Shown: positions 2,318-14,566 of the stretch, one piece after another
Numbering within the stretch: the first letter of the stretch is position 1
How the letters are laid out: every line of letters begins with the position of its first letter
Virus record (IMG/VR): IMGVR_UViG_3300021431_000081
Coordinates: 1-64,000 of that record
Strand: one strand, 5' to 3'
Source: a virus
Lineage: Duplodnaviria > Caudoviricetes
DNA length: 64,000 bases
Program-made: the position numbers and the translations under genes
The notes under the pieces: model-generated
Seen by the model: the letters and a program-made list of their open reading frames with translations, nothing else
Databases searched by the model: none
Told to the model about the DNA's origin: nothing

Positions 2318-3451
2318 ATGAGCATTGAAGCGAAGGTTATAATTGGTAGTTCGGCAGGTGATGAAGGAAAAGGATTGGCGGTAGATTATTATGCCCATCA
2401 GGCTAATCTAAAAGGGCATAAGACGCTTGTTGTACTTAACAATGGTGGTCCGCAGCATGCTCATACTGTTTCTTTAACGGATGGAACTAAACATATTTTT
2501 CGTCATGTAGGTTCTGGTACTTTTGCAGGAGCGGATACATATTTATCAGCATGGTTTTTAGTTAATCCTATTTTCTTTGCAGAAGAACATAAGAAATTAA
2601 AAGCTATGGGATATAATCCTGTTATCTATGTAGATGAAAGATGCAGAATTACCACTCCATATGAAATGATCTTGAATCAAATAGTGGAGCAATCCAGAGG
2701 TAAAAATCGTCATGGTAGTTGCGGTATGGGCATCTGGGAAACGGTAAAGTTGTACGACAGATATGTAATGAGAGCATGGGAAGATTATGCTTATCTTACA
2801 TCCAGAAAGAGTCTGATTGAAGAGCGTAAAGATCTGTTTCGTAGAAATTTTAGTCAGTATTTGAACGCTAATGAGATTACAGATGAAGTATGGAGTGAAT
2901 GGCAGCTACTTGTACAGGATGAAAAGCTGTATCAACGTTACTTAGAAGATCTGGATTACATGTATAAGAATACTATTGTATGTGATTCAGAAATCATAAA
3001 TCATTATGATGAAGTGATATTTGAAAATGGTCAGGGATTATTACTTAATGATGATCCTAACAATGTACATACCACTCCCAGTAATACAGGATTGGATAAT
3101 ATTCGTGTATTGGAACAGTTACATGATTTCTATGCAGAACCAGTATATGTTACCAGAACCTACTTAACCAGACATGGTGCTGATCCCGCTTTTATTGAAA
3201 ATAAGAGTTTGAGATTTAGCGATGAAACAAATATTCCCAATCCTTTTCAGGGTGCAATTCGTTACGGGAATCTGGATATGGGATTGATTCGAAGAATTGA
3301 GAAAGATTCTTATGACAGAGATTATGGCATTCTGGTAACTCATACCAATGAGATGATCTTACCTGAATATATAAAAGACAGTATACATAGTAATGTTTTG
3401 TATTCGTGTGGAAAAGAGCGGGAATCAGTAGGTGATAAAGATGTCTTATGA
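2318..3451 (+). CDS. divergent adenylosuccinate synthetase (PurA)-like protein
   Basis: Motifs GDEGKG, GGPQHAHT, HGSCGMGI, FENGQGLLL, TTPSNTG, YLTRHG and IRYGNLD occur in PurA order. Confidence 0.85.
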   Translation: MSIEAKVIIGSSAGDEGKGLAVDYYAHQANLKGHKTLVVLNNGGPQHAHTVSLTDGTKHIFRHVGSGTFAGADTYLSAWFLVNPIFFAEEHKKLKAMGYNPVIYVDERCRITTPYEMILNQIVEQSRGKNRHGSCGMGIWETVKLYDRYVMRAWEDYAYLTSRKSLIEERKDLFRRNFSQYLNANEITDEVWSEWQLLVQDEKLYQRYLEDLDYMYKNTIVCDSEIINHYDEVIFENGQGLLLNDDPNNVHTTPSNTGLDNIRVLEQLHDFYAEPVYVTRTYLTRHGADPAFIENKSLRFSDETNIPNPFQGAIRYGNLDMGLIRRIEKDSYDRDYGILVTHTNEMILPEYIKDSIHSNVLYSCGKERESVGDKDVL

Positions 3452-7887: not shown

Positions 7888-8434
7888 GGATGAACGAATT
7901 CAACAGTTTAAAGAATTTATTCTACGAGATCCTGGAGTTGGTAAAAGGATTACTCCTGAAGTGATTCAATGGCTTGATGATCATGGATATTTTACAGCAC
8001 CTGCTAGTACAAAATATCACGGTGCATATGAAGGCGGGCTATTTGAACATTCTATGAATGTAACAAAGGTACTTGTAAGTCTTACGAAGGACTGTCAGTT
8101 GGAATGGGAAAGGTCTTCCAGTCCTTATATTATTGGTCTGTTTCATGATTTGTGTAAGATTGATAATTATGTAAGTGAAGGTTTGTCAGTTGCGCTGATT
8201 TATAAATATAACACAGAAACTCTTCTTAAAGGGCATGGTGATAAATCTGTTATGCTTCTTTCCAATCTTATGCAATTGAACATGGAAGAGATTTTGTGTA
8301 TCAGATATCATATGGGAGCATTCACCGAAAAAGAAGAATGGGCTGACTATACCAGAGCCATTCATACATGTCCAAATGTATTATGGGTACATCAAGCTGA
8401 TATGATCGCTACACATATTTGGGAGGTGGATTGA
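7880..8434 (+). CDS. HD-domain phosphohydrolase (YhaM-like HD)
   Basis: APASTKYHGAYEGGLFEHS, FHDLCK, GHG, RYHMG and HQAD motifs. Confidence 0.85.
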   Translation: MNKDERIQQFKEFILRDPGVGKRITPEVIQWLDDHGYFTAPASTKYHGAYEGGLFEHSMNVTKVLVSLTKDCQLEWERSSSPYIIGLFHDLCKIDNYVSEGLSVALIYKYNTETLLKGHGDKSVMLLSNLMQLNMEEILCIRYHMGAFTEKEEWADYTRAIHTCPNVLWVHQADMIATHIWEVD

Positions 8435-9519
8435 TGTATTGGGATACTGCAGCAACTACTAAAATAAAACCTGAAGTATTGGAAGCCATGATGCCTTATT
8501 TTACGGATAAGTGGTATAATCCCTCCTCTATTTACGAACCTGCCAGAGAGGTTCGTAGAGATGTGGAGAGAGCCAGAGAAATTGTAGCTAAATCTATTAA
8601 TGCTGAACCTGAAGAGATTATATTTACATCTGGTGGCAGTGAGGGGAACTGTTTTTGCTACAATACCTCTGGAAGAATCGTAATGTCTAATATTGAGCAT
8701 ACCTCAATGGATACAAATTACGCAGATGTGCTACTCGCAGCGGATAGACAAGGTCTAATATATGGATCGAGCATTAAGTATTTAAGTATTTCACCACGTT
8801 TTGCCGAACATCCTAATATTATTTCAGTAGCATATGCTAATAATGAGATCGGTACTATTCAGGACATCCAATCTTTAGCAAATGCTGCTCACCTCGGGGG
8901 ATTTTTGTTTCATACAGACGCAGTACAGGCGTATGGGAAAATACCTATTGATGTTAAGGCGTTACATGTAGATTATCTGAGTGCATCTGGACATAAAATC
9001 GGCGCTCCTAAAGGGATCGGTTTTGTTTATAAACGAAAGGATGCCTGTGATCTTACTGCACTAATTACTGGTACTCAGGAACATGGTGTTCGTGGTGGTA
9101 CTGAAAACGTACCTTATATTATGGGATTAGCAAAGGCTGTAGAGTTGATTGATTATTCAGTTCAGGATTATATGAAAGAAATGTACGAGTACTTAATATT
9201 ATCAACTGCTGATATTGCTAAACCGAACGGTTTTCCTGCTCGGCGGTTATATAATATAGCAAGTCTTACCTTTAAGGATGAGATTGACGGCCAGGCATTG
9301 ATTGGAATGTTGAATGATAAAGGGCAGTATGTATCTGCAGGATCTGCTTGTCACGCACATTCCAAAGAACCAAGTCATGTACTTAAAGCTATTGGGTTAA
9401 GCGATGAAGAAGCCAATAGGACGATCAGAATTAGTTTTCTGGATGATGTGACTAAAAAAGATATTGATGAATTGGTAAGAGATATTAGAGAATGCCTTAT
9501 GGTGTTGAAAGGAGTTTAA
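8434..9519 (+). CDS. iscS: cysteine desulfurase (IscS/NifS family, PLP-dependent)
   Basis: YWDTAATT, NPSS, FTSGGSE, NNEIG, HTDAVQA, SGHKIG (PLP lysine) and SAGSAC (catalytic cysteine). Confidence 0.92.
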   Translation: MYWDTAATTKIKPEVLEAMMPYFTDKWYNPSSIYEPAREVRRDVERAREIVAKSINAEPEEIIFTSGGSEGNCFCYNTSGRIVMSNIEHTSMDTNYADVLLAADRQGLIYGSSIKYLSISPRFAEHPNIISVAYANNEIGTIQDIQSLANAAHLGGFLFHTDAVQAYGKIPIDVKALHVDYLSASGHKIGAPKGIGFVYKRKDACDLTALITGTQEHGVRGGTENVPYIMGLAKAVELIDYSVQDYMKEMYEYLILSTADIAKPNGFPARRLYNIASLTFKDEIDGQALIGMLNDKGQYVSAGSACHAHSKEPSHVLKAIGLSDEEANRTIRISFLDDVTKKDIDELVRDIRECLMVLKGV

Positions 9520-10402: not shown

Positions 10403-11443
10403 ATGGCGAATAAGAGGAAACTGGCATCAATACAGTATGTTCATGATGTAACTCCAATTGAGGGTGCTGATAAAATCGAATGTGTTCATGTACTTGGTTG
10501 GCAGGTTGTTTGTCAGAAAGATCAGTTTCATGTCGGTGACTGGTGTGTATATTTTGAAGTAGATAGCTTCTTACCTATTGATGAGCGGTTTGAATTTCTG
10601 CGTAACAGCAGTTATAAGAAAACAGATCTGATGGGTGAGGGATTCAGACTTAAGACTGTAAGGCTTAGAGGGCAGATCTCACAGGGTTTAATCATGCCTT
10701 TAAGTATCCTTCCCATTGGTAAATATAATCTGGGAGACGATGTTACAGATATCCTTGGGGTGAAGAAGTGGGAAGTTGAGGAATATACTTCTGCAGCGGG
10801 TACTGTTATTGGTGAGTTTCCTTCTCACCTTTTCCCCAAAACGGATGAATTAAGGGTGCAGAGTTATCCTGAATTGATTGATGAGTTCAAGAAAGCGGGA
10901 GCGTATTATATTACCACTAAGATGGATGGCTCATCTGTTACCATGTACAACTATGAAGGACATGATGGAATCTGTAGCCGTAACAATGAACTGGCAGATG
11001 ATGATAAATGCGCTATGTGGAAATACGCACACGAACATCGGATTTTTGAGAAGATGAAAGAAATTGGTCTTGTCAACTTTGCAATTCAAGGCGAATGGTG
11101 TGGTCCCGGCATTCAGAAAAATAGGCTCAATCTTAAACGTCCTGAGTGGTATGTATTCACTATAATTGATATTCAAACTGGAAAACGAGTGGATTTAGCT
11201 GTTATGGAACGCATTTGTCTTGAATTAGGTATACGGACAGTTCCCTGTGAAGAAGTCAAGCAGGATTTTGAATACAGTTCTGTTGATGAATTACTGGAAC
11301 GTGCAAAGGGCAAATATCCCTCTGGACAGCAGAAAGAAGGAATCGTGATTCGTCCAATTACCAACAATGTTTGGTCAGATACAATCAATGGATGGCTCAG
11401 TATGAAAGTGCTAAACAATGATTATCTGGTGAAGGAGAAATAA
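10403..11443 (+). CDS. ATP-dependent RNA ligase, DRB0094/Rnl5-like with N-terminal OB fold
   Basis: PIEGADKIE...GWQVV...YFEVDS and LRGQISQG, then ligase motifs TKMDGSS, QGEWCG, EGIV and MKVLN. Confidence 0.9.
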   Translation: MANKRKLASIQYVHDVTPIEGADKIECVHVLGWQVVCQKDQFHVGDWCVYFEVDSFLPIDERFEFLRNSSYKKTDLMGEGFRLKTVRLRGQISQGLIMPLSILPIGKYNLGDDVTDILGVKKWEVEEYTSAAGTVIGEFPSHLFPKTDELRVQSYPELIDEFKKAGAYYITTKMDGSSVTMYNYEGHDGICSRNNELADDDKCAMWKYAHEHRIFEKMKEIGLVNFAIQGEWCGPGIQKNRLNLKRPEWYVFTIIDIQTGKRVDLAVMERICLELGIRTVPCEEVKQDFEYSSVDELLERAKGKYPSGQQKEGIVIRPITNNVWSDTINGWLSMKVLNNDYLVKEK

Positions 11444-11448
11444 AGACA

Positions 11449-11742
11449 ATGAAGAAAAAAGTTATCACTTACATTTCGGTGGCATTTGTGGCAATCATTA
11501 TTTCAGCCGTTCTCACATTAAGATTTTCAGCTAGTTTCCAAAGAGAAATAAAGGACTGGCAATCTGATGTCTCAGGTGGTCTTAATCGTACAGTAAAAGT
11601 ATATTCTAATGACGGAACTGAAATCGGATCATGGCATGGTAAGATTGATGTTGATGTAAATGAAGGTGGTCGAATTAAGTTTGACCTTGATGGTAAAAGA
11701 ACAATTGTAATTGGTGGGACTGTTATTATTCAGGAGGAATGA
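11449..11742 (+). CDS. small membrane-anchored protein
   Basis: N-terminal TM/signal helix followed by GGLNRTVKVY...GKID. Confidence 0.7.
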   Translation: MKKKVITYISVAFVAIIISAVLTLRFSASFQREIKDWQSDVSGGLNRTVKVYSNDGTEIGSWHGKIDVDVNEGGRIKFDLDGKRTIVIGGTVIIQEE

Positions 11743-11743
11743 T

Positions 11744-12232
11744 ATGAAATATACTATTCGTGATGGTGTATGGGAAACGAATAGTTCATCTGTTCATTCG
11801 ATGGTTGTTAAGAATACGGGCTTAAGGAATTGTCGCCTTAAGCCCAGAGCAGATGGATATATTCATGTGCCACTTCATTATTATGGATTGGAAGAAAAAT
11901 ACTATTGGACACAAAAAGAGAAGCTTGCATATTTACTGACTTGTGTAGCATATATGGCAAGCTGCGGTAATGGTACTGCTGATTATGACAGGTATTATGA
12001 TGATTACCATTATCAGTATGTAAATGATGCTGTAAGACATTATCTGGAAGAGCATGATAAACGTTATGATGTATTAGGTGTAAAAGTTGATAAATTAGAA
12101 GATGCAGAACTGGATCATCAATCTATTCCTGAGTTTGGAGAATTTCCAATTGCTGTTAGTATTTGGAATGAAGAGAGTATTCAGAACTTTATCTTTAATA
12201 GTTATGTGGGATTAAAGACAGAATGTGATTAA
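11744..12232 (+). CDS. ETNSSS-motif protein, paralogue 1
   Basis: Starts MKYTIRDGVWETNSSSVHSM after an AGGAGG RBS; contains EKLAY and LDHQS. Confidence 0.85.
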   Translation: MKYTIRDGVWETNSSSVHSMVVKNTGLRNCRLKPRADGYIHVPLHYYGLEEKYYWTQKEKLAYLLTCVAYMASCGNGTADYDRYYDDYHYQYVNDAVRHYLEEHDKRYDVLGVKVDKLEDAELDHQSIPEFGEFPIAVSIWNEESIQNFIFNSYVGLKTECD

Positions 12233-12241
12233 GGAGTAATT

Positions 12242-12994
12242 ATGAAATATACGATGCGTGAAGGGTGTTGGGAGACAAACAGTAGTTCAATGCATTCCAT
12301 GGCAATTATGAAGAATACTGGACAATACACCCTTGAAGAAATGATGAATGATATTTATATTACATCTAAAGGTGTATGGAATCTATATAATGATGATTTA
12401 GATTTTGGTCGTTGGCCTTTTGCTATTTTAAGTACTTTTGCTGAAAAAGTAAGATATGCTATTGCCAGTTTTGCAGGAAGTTACAGACCATATAATGAGG
12501 GCTGTAAATTTATTGATGATACTCTTTATCCTATTTTAAAAAAGTATATTCCCGGTTTCAAAAAGATACATTTTCCATCTTGTTGGAAACCCATTTATAG
12601 GGATCAGGATGGTAACGATCTTGAACCAGATGATGTTCATTATCATGATTTCGAAGATGGCGATTATTCTTATGGCTATGAGCAGGATGGGAAATGGTAT
12701 CATGCCGTTGAATCTGATGACGAATGGGAACTATTTTATTTTGGTGAAGTAGATCATCAGAGTTGTACTTTGTTACAGAGTTTCTTAAAACATGAAAAGA
12801 TCTCATTAGAGGATTTCCTCATTAACCGTCAGTATATTGTAATCATTGATGGTGATGAATATTGTGCTTGGGATAAGTATTTAAAATCTGGAATTATTGA
12901 TCGTAGTAAAATTGATCATGAATATCCAAAGATCACAATGCCTATGGACGAATATATTTATATGGAGGAACATGCTAATGAAGAAAACAATTAG
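12242..12994 (+). CDS. ETNSSS-motif protein, paralogue 2
   Basis: Starts MKYTMREGCWETNSSSMHSM; contains EKVRY and VDHQS; AAGGAG RBS. Confidence 0.85.
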   Translation: MKYTMREGCWETNSSSMHSMAIMKNTGQYTLEEMMNDIYITSKGVWNLYNDDLDFGRWPFAILSTFAEKVRYAIASFAGSYRPYNEGCKFIDDTLYPILKKYIPGFKKIHFPSCWKPIYRDQDGNDLEPDDVHYHDFEDGDYSYGYEQDGKWYHAVESDDEWELFYFGEVDHQSCTLLQSFLKHEKISLEDFLINRQYIVIIDGDEYCAWDKYLKSGIIDRSKIDHEYPKITMPMDEYIYMEEHANEENN

Positions 12995-13265
12995 ATTTGG
13001 TGTTTGGGAAACAAATTCCTCTTCTGTACACAATTTCTGTATCTGCACAGAAGAAGAGTTCAAGAAATGGGAAGACGGCGAACTGTTTTATGATGACACT
13101 GCAGAAGAATTGACAAACAAAGAAGTTAATCATTGGGATGAAGATAATTATAAGTACGACCAATGGTTTAATGAAAAGAATGACTGGTTTCATGTTTATG
13201 ATCATCATTTCACAACCCCATCAGGGGATCAGATGGTAATTTTTGGCTACTATGGACAAGAGTAA
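12978..13265 (+). CDS. ETNSSS-motif protein, paralogue 3 (short form)
   Basis: Starts MKKTIRFGVWETNSSSVHNF after a GGAGG RBS; C-terminus FTTPSGDQMVIFGYYG. Confidence 0.85.
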   Translation: MKKTIRFGVWETNSSSVHNFCICTEEEFKKWEDGELFYDDTAEELTNKEVNHWDEDNYKYDQWFNEKNDWFHVYDHHFTTPSGDQMVIFGYYGQE

Positions 13266-13281
13266 GGAGAATATGTAGACA

Positions 13282-14211
13282 ATGAAAATTAAGATTGCTG
13301 AATATGATAATGGTAATGTTCATGTTATTCGCTTTGACGATGGTACGGTAATTCGTTTTTCAGAGGACGATGAATTTGATTTTGCATATCCAGAAAACAT
13401 GGATGTTAAGATCTGTGATCGTTGTGATATGGGGTGTGTAATGTGTCATGAGGGCAGTACATCTGACGGCAAACTGGGAGATATTATGAACGCTGCCTGG
13501 GTAGATACGGTTCATCCCTTTACAGAGATGGCATTAGGTGGTGGTAATATATTTGAACATCCCGATTTGGTTCCATTCCTTAAGAAATTACAGGATAAGA
13601 AAGTATTCGCCAATGTTACCGTCAATCAGGTTCACTTTCTTAAGAATCAGGATCTGCTTTTAGATTTAAGTAGGAAAAAACTAATCTGGGGTATTGGCGT
13701 ATCCCTCGTAAAACCCACAGAAGAGTTATTTACCGCTTTGAAGAAATTTCCGAATGCCGTCATTCATGTGATCGCAGGTATTCTGGATGATCATGACCTG
13801 CAAATTCTTATGGATCATGGTCAGGATATCAAAGTCCTGATACTTGGATATAAGAAACTTCGCAGAGGTAATAGTTACTATCTGAAAGATAAGAATGAGT
13901 ATCATGGATATGGCACAAGCATTGACTGGAAGATCGGTATGCTTGAAAGATCTTTATACATGATGTTTCAGTATATCCGCATCGTATCATTTGATTGTCT
14001 GGCAATTGAACAGCTACACGTTAAAACTCATGTACCTCCTCAAGTCTGGGATCGCTTTTATCAGGGTGAGGATGGTACAATGACATTCTATATTGATATG
14101 GTAAACGAGCAGTTTGCTGAAAGCAGCACTGCATCATTAAACGAAAGATATTCTGTATTATCATCTGTAGATGAAATGTTCGCTAAAGTGAAGGAGAATA
14201 AGAATGTTTGA
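13282..14211 (+). CDS. radical SAM enzyme
   Basis: CxxxCxxC motif (CDMGCVMCH), ALGGGN motif, NVTVN and GIGVS strands; no evident Cys-rich SPASM extension. Confidence 0.9.
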   Translation: MKIKIAEYDNGNVHVIRFDDGTVIRFSEDDEFDFAYPENMDVKICDRCDMGCVMCHEGSTSDGKLGDIMNAAWVDTVHPFTEMALGGGNIFEHPDLVPFLKKLQDKKVFANVTVNQVHFLKNQDLLLDLSRKKLIWGIGVSLVKPTEELFTALKKFPNAVIHVIAGILDDHDLQILMDHGQDIKVLILGYKKLRRGNSYYLKDKNEYHGYGTSIDWKIGMLERSLYMMFQYIRIVSFDCLAIEQLHVKTHVPPQVWDRFYQGEDGTMTFYIDMVNEQFAESSTASLNERYSVLSSVDEMFAKVKENKNV

Positions 14212-14566
14212 TGAAAAAGTTGCTGTAAATAAACATGGAGTGAATAGCAATATTCACTCCAGAATTCTTTCTGAGGATAAAATGACTGCTGCGGGGTTCC
14301 ATCATCATTCAAAAGATGCCTGGTACTACAGTAAACTCATTGATAAGGACGTTACTTTTAATGTAACGATCAAGGATGATAATTCGGATTTTAGTATTGA
14401 TGTACTGGATGAGGATTGCTTGCAACCATATGATTATCAGGCAATGCTACATTGTAATCCAAATCATGGATTTGCAAAGAAGATTATGGAACAGGTAGAA
14501 CAATGTATGGATAAATTACAAAAGACAGGTATTCTATACGGACATGTTAGAGGAGAGTATATATGA
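14204..14566 (+). CDS. hypothetical protein
   Basis: ORF coupled to neighbours; IDVLDEDCLQPYDYQ motif. Confidence 0.7.
   Translation: MFDEKVAVNKHGVNSNIHSRILSEDKMTAAGFHHHSKDAWYYSKLIDKDVTFNVTIKDDNSDFSIDVLDEDCLQPYDYQAMLHCNPNHGFAKKIMEQVEQCMDKLQKTGILYGHVRGEYI

Follow-up and report, generated by a model that had tools for sequence, protein, structure and literature searches.

The radical S-adenosylmethionine (SAM) enzyme PflA is a small, single-cluster protein that acts on an invariant loop common to large enzymes and short proteins, namely PflB and the "spare part" protein GrcA. A possibly analogous arrangement is encoded in a virus of the Caudoviricetes (IMG/VR record IMGVR_UViG_3300021431_000081, 155,845 bp, rated complete), the first 64 kb of which (positions 1 to 64,000) form the window analyzed here. 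At positions 11744–14211, three tandem genes encode proteins that begin with nearly the same residues, which we call the tag, and a radical SAM gene lies immediately downstream. The pairing of these tagged proteins, hereafter ETN proteins, with this radical SAM enzyme is a real, common and previously undescribed two-part system, present in every intact related locus examined. The reading we favor, at a probability of roughly 45%, is that the tag is docked by the radical SAM enzyme, which then carries out radical chemistry at the TNSSS loop, the ETN proteins being its clients.

Several described systems resemble this module in part. Like glycyl-radical enzyme/activase pairs, it would combine a radical SAM enzyme with a loop carried by both large and short proteins. 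Unlike them, ETN proteins have in their tag no counterpart of the invariant glycine of an RVxG-type loop (many members have N, S, K or Y in place of G8), the tag is N-terminal whereas the glycyl-radical loop is C-terminal, and ETN proteins have a small fold for which no match to a glycyl-radical enzyme (GRE) barrel was found. Sulfatases matured by the anaerobic sulfatase-maturating enzyme (anSME) or AtsB offer a second likeness, in that a serine is oxidized within an invariant motif near the client N-terminus, and anSME is among the best matches of the window enzyme. The sulfatase (C/S)xPxR motif is, however, absent from all three window ETN proteins, the SPASM auxiliary clusters of anSME have no counterpart in the window radical SAM enzyme, and no alkaline-phosphatase-fold match to ETN appeared, a point of little weight on its own. 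CteB, SkfB, SuiB and EpeE, which bind their precursors by β-strand addition, are the top Foldseek matches, and here, too, tandem clients share a conserved N-terminal segment. Unlike such maturases of ribosomally synthesized and post-translationally modified peptides (RiPPs), the ETN module comes without an RRE (the leader-binding domain of RiPP enzymes), SPASM or twitch domain, protease or exporter, either in the window cassette genes or in annotated recurrent neighbor families, and its putative clients are folded and in some cases fused to the enzyme. The His-Xaa-Ser (Hxs) system likewise encodes radical SAM enzymes with a protein bearing a His/Ser-rich motif, but the ETN module has no HxS repeats, no HxsB/HxsC pair and no HxsD, and the NCBIfam match of the window enzyme to HxsC falls far under the cutoff (E 0.01, 14.8 bits vs 268); AlbA is another weak NCBIfam match. 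The window enzyme is a member of phrog_16999 ("Fe-S oxidoreductase", 9e-36), as is, for example, gp128 of the cultured Microcystis phage Ma-LMM01; the name given by PHROG is a generic one without tested function, and the ETN partners match no PHROG. In the literature library searched for the motif and for phage radical SAM enzymes, no paper mentions the motif or the pairing.

The constancy of the pairing is seen in two samples of loci. Nearly all of 80 IMG/VR loci with ETN-2 relatives at 33–98% identity carry tandem arrays of two to six tag-bearing genes, and the radical SAM gene lies directly downstream of the array in 77. Two of the other three stop at a contig edge (L039, L065) and the third, L023, is a clean deletion. 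Relative to its sister L014, it is missing a 2.5-kb segment (L014 8713–11235) that comprises a short ETN gene, the radical SAM gene and ~1.1 kb more, leaving an orphan long ETN gene; L023 is thus a natural deletion variant of the module. The second sample consists of 18 loci from bacterial genomes and metagenome-assembled genomes at 27–39% identity, drawn from Lachnospiraceae, other Clostridia, Bacilli and Bacteroidales and including the cultured isolates Eubacterium plexicaudatum ASF492 and Acetivibrio ethanolgignens. The radical SAM gene is present in 15, in some of them upstream of the ETN genes; L086 and L096 end near their ETN genes, and L088 is a 2.8-kb contig with no radical SAM gene in the 1.9 kb following the ETN gene. 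A reading of the window made earlier from the sequence alone (the sequence-only reading) had proposed a coupling of ETNSSS proteins to this radical SAM clade, to be given up if such proteins usually occurred without the enzyme. With adjacency in 77/80 and 15/18 loci, and natural fusions besides, the opposite is observed and the coupling is borne out.

Three distant radical SAM homologs, found via a different query, each adjoin ETN genes as well. The radical SAM query also reaches the Lak megaphages, in which the order is reversed, the radical SAM gene being followed by four ETN genes (166, 221, 187 and 100 residues; for example L107, Prevotella phage Lak-B7, 234135–235013 region, an unannotated record), and Ma-LMM01, in which the ETN protein gp130 is encoded two genes upstream of gp128, itself 34% identical to the window radical SAM enzyme. 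The Ma-LMM01 transcriptome study (PMC5780444) places 162 genes in its middle class and does not mention gp128–130, so that it does not discriminate here. Upon dereplication to 38 lineages (radical SAM identity < 85%), ETN genes adjoin the radical SAM gene in 36, while no other gene family is present in more than seven. This near-constant pairing, with no third partner, argues that the two components form a self-contained, mobile module.

In the window itself the four genes are co-directional. ETN-1 (11744–12232, plus strand) encodes 162 residues with an isoelectric point (pI) of 5.2, a compact form carrying the tag, EKLAY and LDHQS; its longest open reading frame (ORF) begins with TTG at 11711, but homologs and the ribosome-binding site favor ATG 11744 instead. 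ETN-2 (12242–12994, plus strand; 250 residues, pI 4.6) is a long form with the tag, FGRWPF, EKVRY, VDHQS and IDGDEY, plus an acidic/aromatic β insertion of ~50 residues. ETN-3 (12978–13265, plus strand; 95 residues, pI 4.5), which overlaps ETN-2 by 17 nt, is a short acidic form in which the tag is followed by an acidic/aromatic body and a C-terminal FGYYGQE. The radical SAM gene (13282–14211, plus strand; 309 residues, CxxxCxxC) starts 16 nt downstream of ETN-3. Each cassette gene is preceded 6–10 nt upstream by a Shine-Dalgarno sequence (AGGAGG, AAGGAG or GGAGG), and the three ETN proteins are acidic (pI 4.5–5.2) and rich in aromatic residues (15–20%). This layout agrees with the sequence-only reading, which had described three tandem tagged paralogs ahead of a CxxxCxxC radical SAM enzyme without an obvious SPASM domain, the first two sharing EKxxY and DHQS blocks and the third a short acidic form.

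The three N-termini read MKYTIRDGVWETNSSSVHS, MKYTMREGCWETNSSSMHS and MKKTIRFGVWETNSSSVHN, approximately the first 19 residues being nearly identical, with the consensus (I/M)RxG(V/C)WETNSSSxH; a further written form of the tag is VFETNSSSTHSI. The three serines are encoded by AGT-TCA-TCT, AGT-AGT-TCA and TCC-TCT-TCT, respectively, and because the DNA of the three copies differs at such synonymous sites, the tag must be kept at the protein level, as had been claimed from the letters alone. All three proteins carry R-x4-E-T-N-S-S-S-x-H beside a radical SAM gene of the phrog_16999 clade, the features by which we define the ETN family, and they match the ETN profile at 5e-28 (ETN-1), 5e-96 (ETN-2) and 1e-8 (ETN-3).

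A word-indexed search returned 158 relatives of ETN-2. The ETN profile, run against 1.84 billion representatives, returned 4,792 at E ≤ 1e-3 and 881 at E ≤ 1e-10, these counts being of cluster representatives at 50% identity. ETN proteins nonetheless have no match in Pfam, PHROG, NCBIfam or PADLOC, nor in the PDB by sequence profile, and a tblastn search with ETN-2 through 50,697 phage records found none, whereas the more conserved radical SAM enzyme did reach cultured phages. Both partners are thus very large families, yet ETN is named by no family library, and the earlier suspicion that these proteins belong to no characterized family holds through family-library, PDB and fold searches alike. 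The module ranges over gut phages of Lachnospiraceae, other Bacillota and Bacteroidales, Prevotella Lak megaphages and a cultured cyanophage, and, among enzyme systems of phage genomes that await an explanation, appears to be one of the commoner.

ETN proteins range from 95 to 280 residues, with one to six tagged proteins per locus, and when their bodies are clustered without the tag, two classes emerge. Class 0, found in 39 of 43 lineages, includes ETN-1, ETN-2, Ma-LMM01 gp130 and most fused domains. Class 1, found in 25 of 43, comprises short acidic proteins that end in FGYYG(H/Y/Q)(D/E), like ETN-3, and that have only the tag in common with class 0. Over 64 diverse class 0 members, R6, T12, S14, S15 and S16 of the tag are 100% conserved, N13 and H18 98% and E11 97%; in the body, conservation reaches 98% for D205, 95% for Y72, 92% for D171 and 91% for K69. 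Departures in the tag do occur, as at locus L110, where it reads FETNSSTEN. A variable number of copies and at least two unrelated body classes under one tag are what a tag for modification or recognition would show.

Who reads the tag is suggested by how it varies. When tag pairs are compared at the variable tag positions only, class 0 and class 1 tags within one genome are 56% identical (0.564), as compared to 43% (0.425) for same-class tags between genomes and 41% for cross-class tags between genomes; upon permuting the class 1 tags among genomes, none of 5000 permutations reached the observed within-genome value. By these comparisons, tags of different ETN classes have evolved in concert within a genome. 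This suggests a single reader for all of them, although such a pattern can arise by gene conversion as well as by co-adaptation to a common reader. Since the radical SAM enzyme is the constant partner, it is most simply that reader. Tag position 10 is illustrative, being W in all three window tags, H in both L027 tags and F in most other genomes; W or H as against F tracks residue 6 of the radical SAM enzyme (Ala vs Gly), within its N-terminal hairpin, across about five lineages in which the correlation, though suggestive, is inseparable from phylogeny.

The enzyme itself belongs to the radical SAM superfamily, having both the cluster motif and a partial TIM-barrel core. Ahead of the cluster motif stands an N-terminal β-hairpin, YxNGN...DGTxIR (also DGTKIR), and GGGN, LILGYKxxRRG and SFDxLAIEQL are further features. 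C48, C52 and C55 of CxxxCxxC are invariant in 36 homologs, among which no further cysteine is conserved, which argues for a single-cluster enzyme without SPASM or twitch domain. The third cysteine is also the exact insertion point of an intein (Hint and LAGLIDADG domains) in the homolog P0382, a position that marks the site as essential and is typical of inteins in indispensable catalytic motifs. The window enzyme scores only 14 bits against PF04055 (Pfam cutoff 29.5); its relatives number more than 3,600 clusters at 90% identity, many with PF04055. Sequence profiles against the PDB give weak, generic cluster-motif matches only (GDGT-MAS, SkfB, viperin, SuiB, PqqE). Structural comparison, for which the radical SAM half of the modeled fusion P0208 was used, matches radical SAM structures with probability 1.0, the best being CteB (5why, 3e-5), SkfB (6efn, 9e-5), HemN and anSME (4k36, 1e-3), followed by EpeE and SuiB and, more weakly, MoaA and BlsE.

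Natural fusions tie the two partners together physically. P0208 (575 residues) is an ETN protein fused to a radical SAM enzyme, its second half being 30% identical to the window enzyme over 316 residues, and further ETN-radical SAM fusions (P0384/5/7, P0390/1, P0393, P0395, P0394/6, P0398/9/400) bring the number of groups to about seven. The opposite order occurs once, in P0386, where the radical SAM enzyme precedes a short class 1 ETN domain, and P0159 joins a long ETN protein to a compact one. Because the tag is internal in P0386 and P0159, a free N-terminus is not required. At three fusion loci there is no other tag gene within 5 kb, so that the fused protein is the whole system there. One fusion, P0390 at locus L113 (a contig of GCA_964551225.1), has a degenerate tag, HETSSSSAS, amid neighbors that look chromosomal (a two-component system, TrkA, an Na/H exchanger, leucine-rich repeat proteins and a VWA protein), and this copy may be non-phage or domesticated.

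An AlphaFold2 model of ETN-2, built on a 37-sequence alignment, is confident overall, with a mean predicted local distance difference test score (pLDDT) of 89.9 and a predicted template modeling score (pTM) of 0.86; residues 1–5 and 9–14, the beginning of the tag among them, have a pLDDT under 50. Against the PDB no solved fold was matched by Foldseek (best E 0.33) or by exhaustive (wide) VIA-align (best Z 3.3), and there was no match to a nucleotide-binding fold, GRE barrel, Ntn hydrolase, pyruvoyl enzyme or alkaline-phosphatase fold. The model found one match in BFVD, an uncharacterized phage protein, and only viral hypothetical clusters in shape and feature searches of the ESM Atlas. Such a lack of matches to a predicted structure does not prove the fold new. 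In the fusion P0208 (alignment A6; pLDDT 73, pTM 0.52), tag residues 9–21 are again disordered and the radical SAM hairpin has a pLDDT of ~53. The tag is the one part AlphaFold2 cannot place, alone or in the natural fusion, as expected for a segment that becomes ordered only on a partner.

From the genomic pairing, the repeated fusion, the invariant tag on unrelated bodies and the concerted evolution of tags within a genome, all directly observed, we infer a mechanism of docking and hydrogen abstraction and a candidate target residue. The module would be a phage-borne, self-contained, two-component system in which the radical SAM enzyme recognizes the tag common to ETN proteins. The N-terminal strand of the tag (hydrophobic-R-x-x-hydrophobic-hydrophobic-E) would pair with the conserved N-terminal β-hairpin of the enzyme, thereby bringing the SAM/[4Fe-4S] site and the invariant T-N-S-S-S-x-H loop together. 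The 5'-deoxyadenosyl radical could then abstract hydrogen from one of the loop residues, with a serine as the likeliest target, and the resulting modified or radical-bearing residue would be needed for the ETN protein's own function. The main clients would be the class 0 proteins, with their putatively new fold and invariant K69, Y72, D171 and D205, and the short class 1 proteins would be additional clients. We favor this client model because copy number varies and unrelated bodies have only the tag in common, and because the tag is flexible in the models while the nearest radical SAM structures act on proteins or peptides. More doubtful is an extension in which the enzyme installs a radical or a new catalytic group on the Ser-rich loop of a previously unseen fold, making ETN proteins a new phage enzyme family with "spare" short forms; if true, their chemistry would be new to viruses, serving, for example, counter-defense or nucleotide or RNA modification.

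Several observations weigh against the client model. The enzyme lacks the auxiliary clusters used by the known Ser/Cys-oxidizing and thioether-forming protein maturases. The P0208 model shows no confident packing of its domains (pTM 0.52), so that docking has no structural support from it, and as a prediction it neither supports nor refutes docking. Fusions that occur in both orders and are the only tagged proteins of their loci would be more usual for the subunits of one enzyme than for an enzyme with its substrate, and K69, Y72, D171 and D205 together with the tag look, from their conservation, like the polar set of an active site.

The latter two points are likewise what would be expected were ETN proteins non-substrate subunits of a radical SAM holoenzyme, the main alternative, which we consider somewhat less probable than the client model. 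Here the tag loop (T, N, three Ser and His, with R6 and K69) would combine with E11, D171 and D205 in a phosphate- and metal-binding pocket that offers a nucleotide, a nucleic-acid end or a small molecule to the radical site; the paralogs would vary specificity or regulation, and the reaction would yield a nucleotide or nucleic acid in modified form for phage replication or counter-defense. Viperin and MoaA among the weak matches of the radical SAM enzyme fit this scheme, as does the greater conservation of the enzyme (> 50% identity among the relatives listed, all 120 of which are at least 50% identical) vs that of ETN bodies (33–40%). So do the neighbors concerned with nucleotides and nucleic acids, which include ribonucleotide reductase, a PurA-like protein, PolIII, serine hydroxymethyltransferase with dCMP deaminase (L111), a Pnkp-like protein, RlaP and RNA ligase. 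The scheme accounts poorly, however, for the class 1 forms of 95 residues, which keep the tag perfectly without the K/Y/D/D set and one of which is fused alone to the radical SAM enzyme (P0386); every ETN protein is, moreover, strongly acidic, and the ETN model matches no nucleotide-binding fold. The sequence-only reading had left the choice between a modification or recognition tag and a composite metal site open, and the evidence does not separate the two mechanisms.

The Asn-Ser and Ser-Ser bonds are classical self-cleavage sites, as in inteins and pyruvoyl enzymes, and by analogy the tag might be a processing site, cut at or near N13/S14–S16 either autocatalytically or by the radical SAM enzyme. 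Cleavage would free a short N-terminal peptide and leave a new N-terminal serine or a pyruvoyl-type group, the fusions then being self-cleaving polyproteins, and the tag does always lie at the N-terminal edge of the ETN body, including in the radical SAM-ETN (P0386) and ETN-ETN (P0159) fusions. Yet the known self-cleaving systems work without a radical SAM enzyme, which is constant here, and the fold searches showed no resemblance to Ntn hydrolases or pyruvoyl enzymes, so that we regard processing as improbable. Less probable still is a RiPP-like pathway, in which ETN proteins would be leader-core precursors that the radical SAM enzyme matures into peptides for secretion or release: tandem genes whose products agree at the N-terminus and diverge thereafter, beside an enzyme whose core resembles RiPP maturases, recall such systems, but the conserved part holds the candidate reaction site and is not merely a leader, the bodies are folded domains of 95–280 residues, the RiPP accessory functions named above did not turn up in the cassette genes or the annotated recurrent neighbor families, and the fusions speak against it.

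Whichever chemistry operates, its solution would bring to light a protein modification not seen before or, failing that, a radical enzyme of two subunits that is likewise new. A radical SAM enzyme with a dedicated protein partner, the module could prove categorically new once that chemistry is known. New here are the occurrence of fusions in either order, the division of ETN bodies into two classes, the set of invariant class 0 residues, the concerted-evolution test and the intein position, along with a confident predicted structure for ETN-2 that has no solved match. Also new are the natural deletion and the handles in a cultured phage and a cultured isolate; gp128/gp130 of Ma-LMM01, the locus of Eubacterium plexicaudatum ASF492 and the L023 vs L014 variant thus make the module testable.

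As for its setting, the cassette sits within a block of replication and nucleotide-metabolism genes that holds DnaB, a PD-(D/E)XK nuclease, an HD protein, a NifS-like desulfurase, RNA ligase, PolIII alpha, RecD2, NAD-dependent DNA ligase and ribonucleotide reductase. Elsewhere the occasional neighbors are a Pnkp-like kinase-phosphatase-ligase, RlaP, RNA ligases, DNA methyltransferases, NifS and RecD2. This replication, nucleotide-metabolism, RNA-repair and DNA-methylase setting points towards work inside the cell at an early or middle stage, for example in host takeover or counter-defense, and away from virion structure. The NifS-like cysteine desulfurase of the window (8419–9519, plus strand; TIGR03402, 4e-92) is a possible supplier of Fe-S clusters but does not accompany the module consistently: 5 of the 38 lineages have a NifS-like gene no more than 10 kb away, so that the link to IscS suggested earlier is only occasional. 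The flanking genes of 97 residues (11449–11742) and 120 residues (14204–14566) were considered as module parts and rejected, recurring in only 2 and 4 of the 80 loci, respectively.

Promoter-like matches were not above those in shuffled sequence (15 vs a mean of 18.0) and terminator-like matches were not enriched (3 vs 1.7), none of the three terminator-like sites being a plus-strand site within 11744–14211. Shortly past the radical SAM stop, inside the 120-residue ORF, lies a perfect hairpin with an 11-bp stem (14236–14261), which scored as terminator-like on both strands and whose plus-strand tail is not T-rich. In several lineages RNA-repair genes are found no more than 10 kb from the module (L034:2457–5627, L061:4372–5454, L103 and window 10403–11443), among them a Pnkp-like kinase-phosphatase-ligase of 1057 residues, an RlaP nucleotidyltransferase and Rnl-type ligases, a pattern in which enrichment is not distinguished from common placement in early regions. 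Finally, window genes 646–1242, 1418–2299 and the divergent PurA-like 2318–3451 recur as a trio in 14–16 of the 80 ETN loci. The match to adenylosuccinate synthetase is weak (Pfam 6e-28; best PDB 3e-11), with no PurZ-named structure among the PDB matches. The trio lies 10–11 kb upstream of the ETN genes in the window and 5–7 kb downstream in other loci, and since it recurs together at differing positions, it behaves as a second mobile cassette traveling in the same phages.

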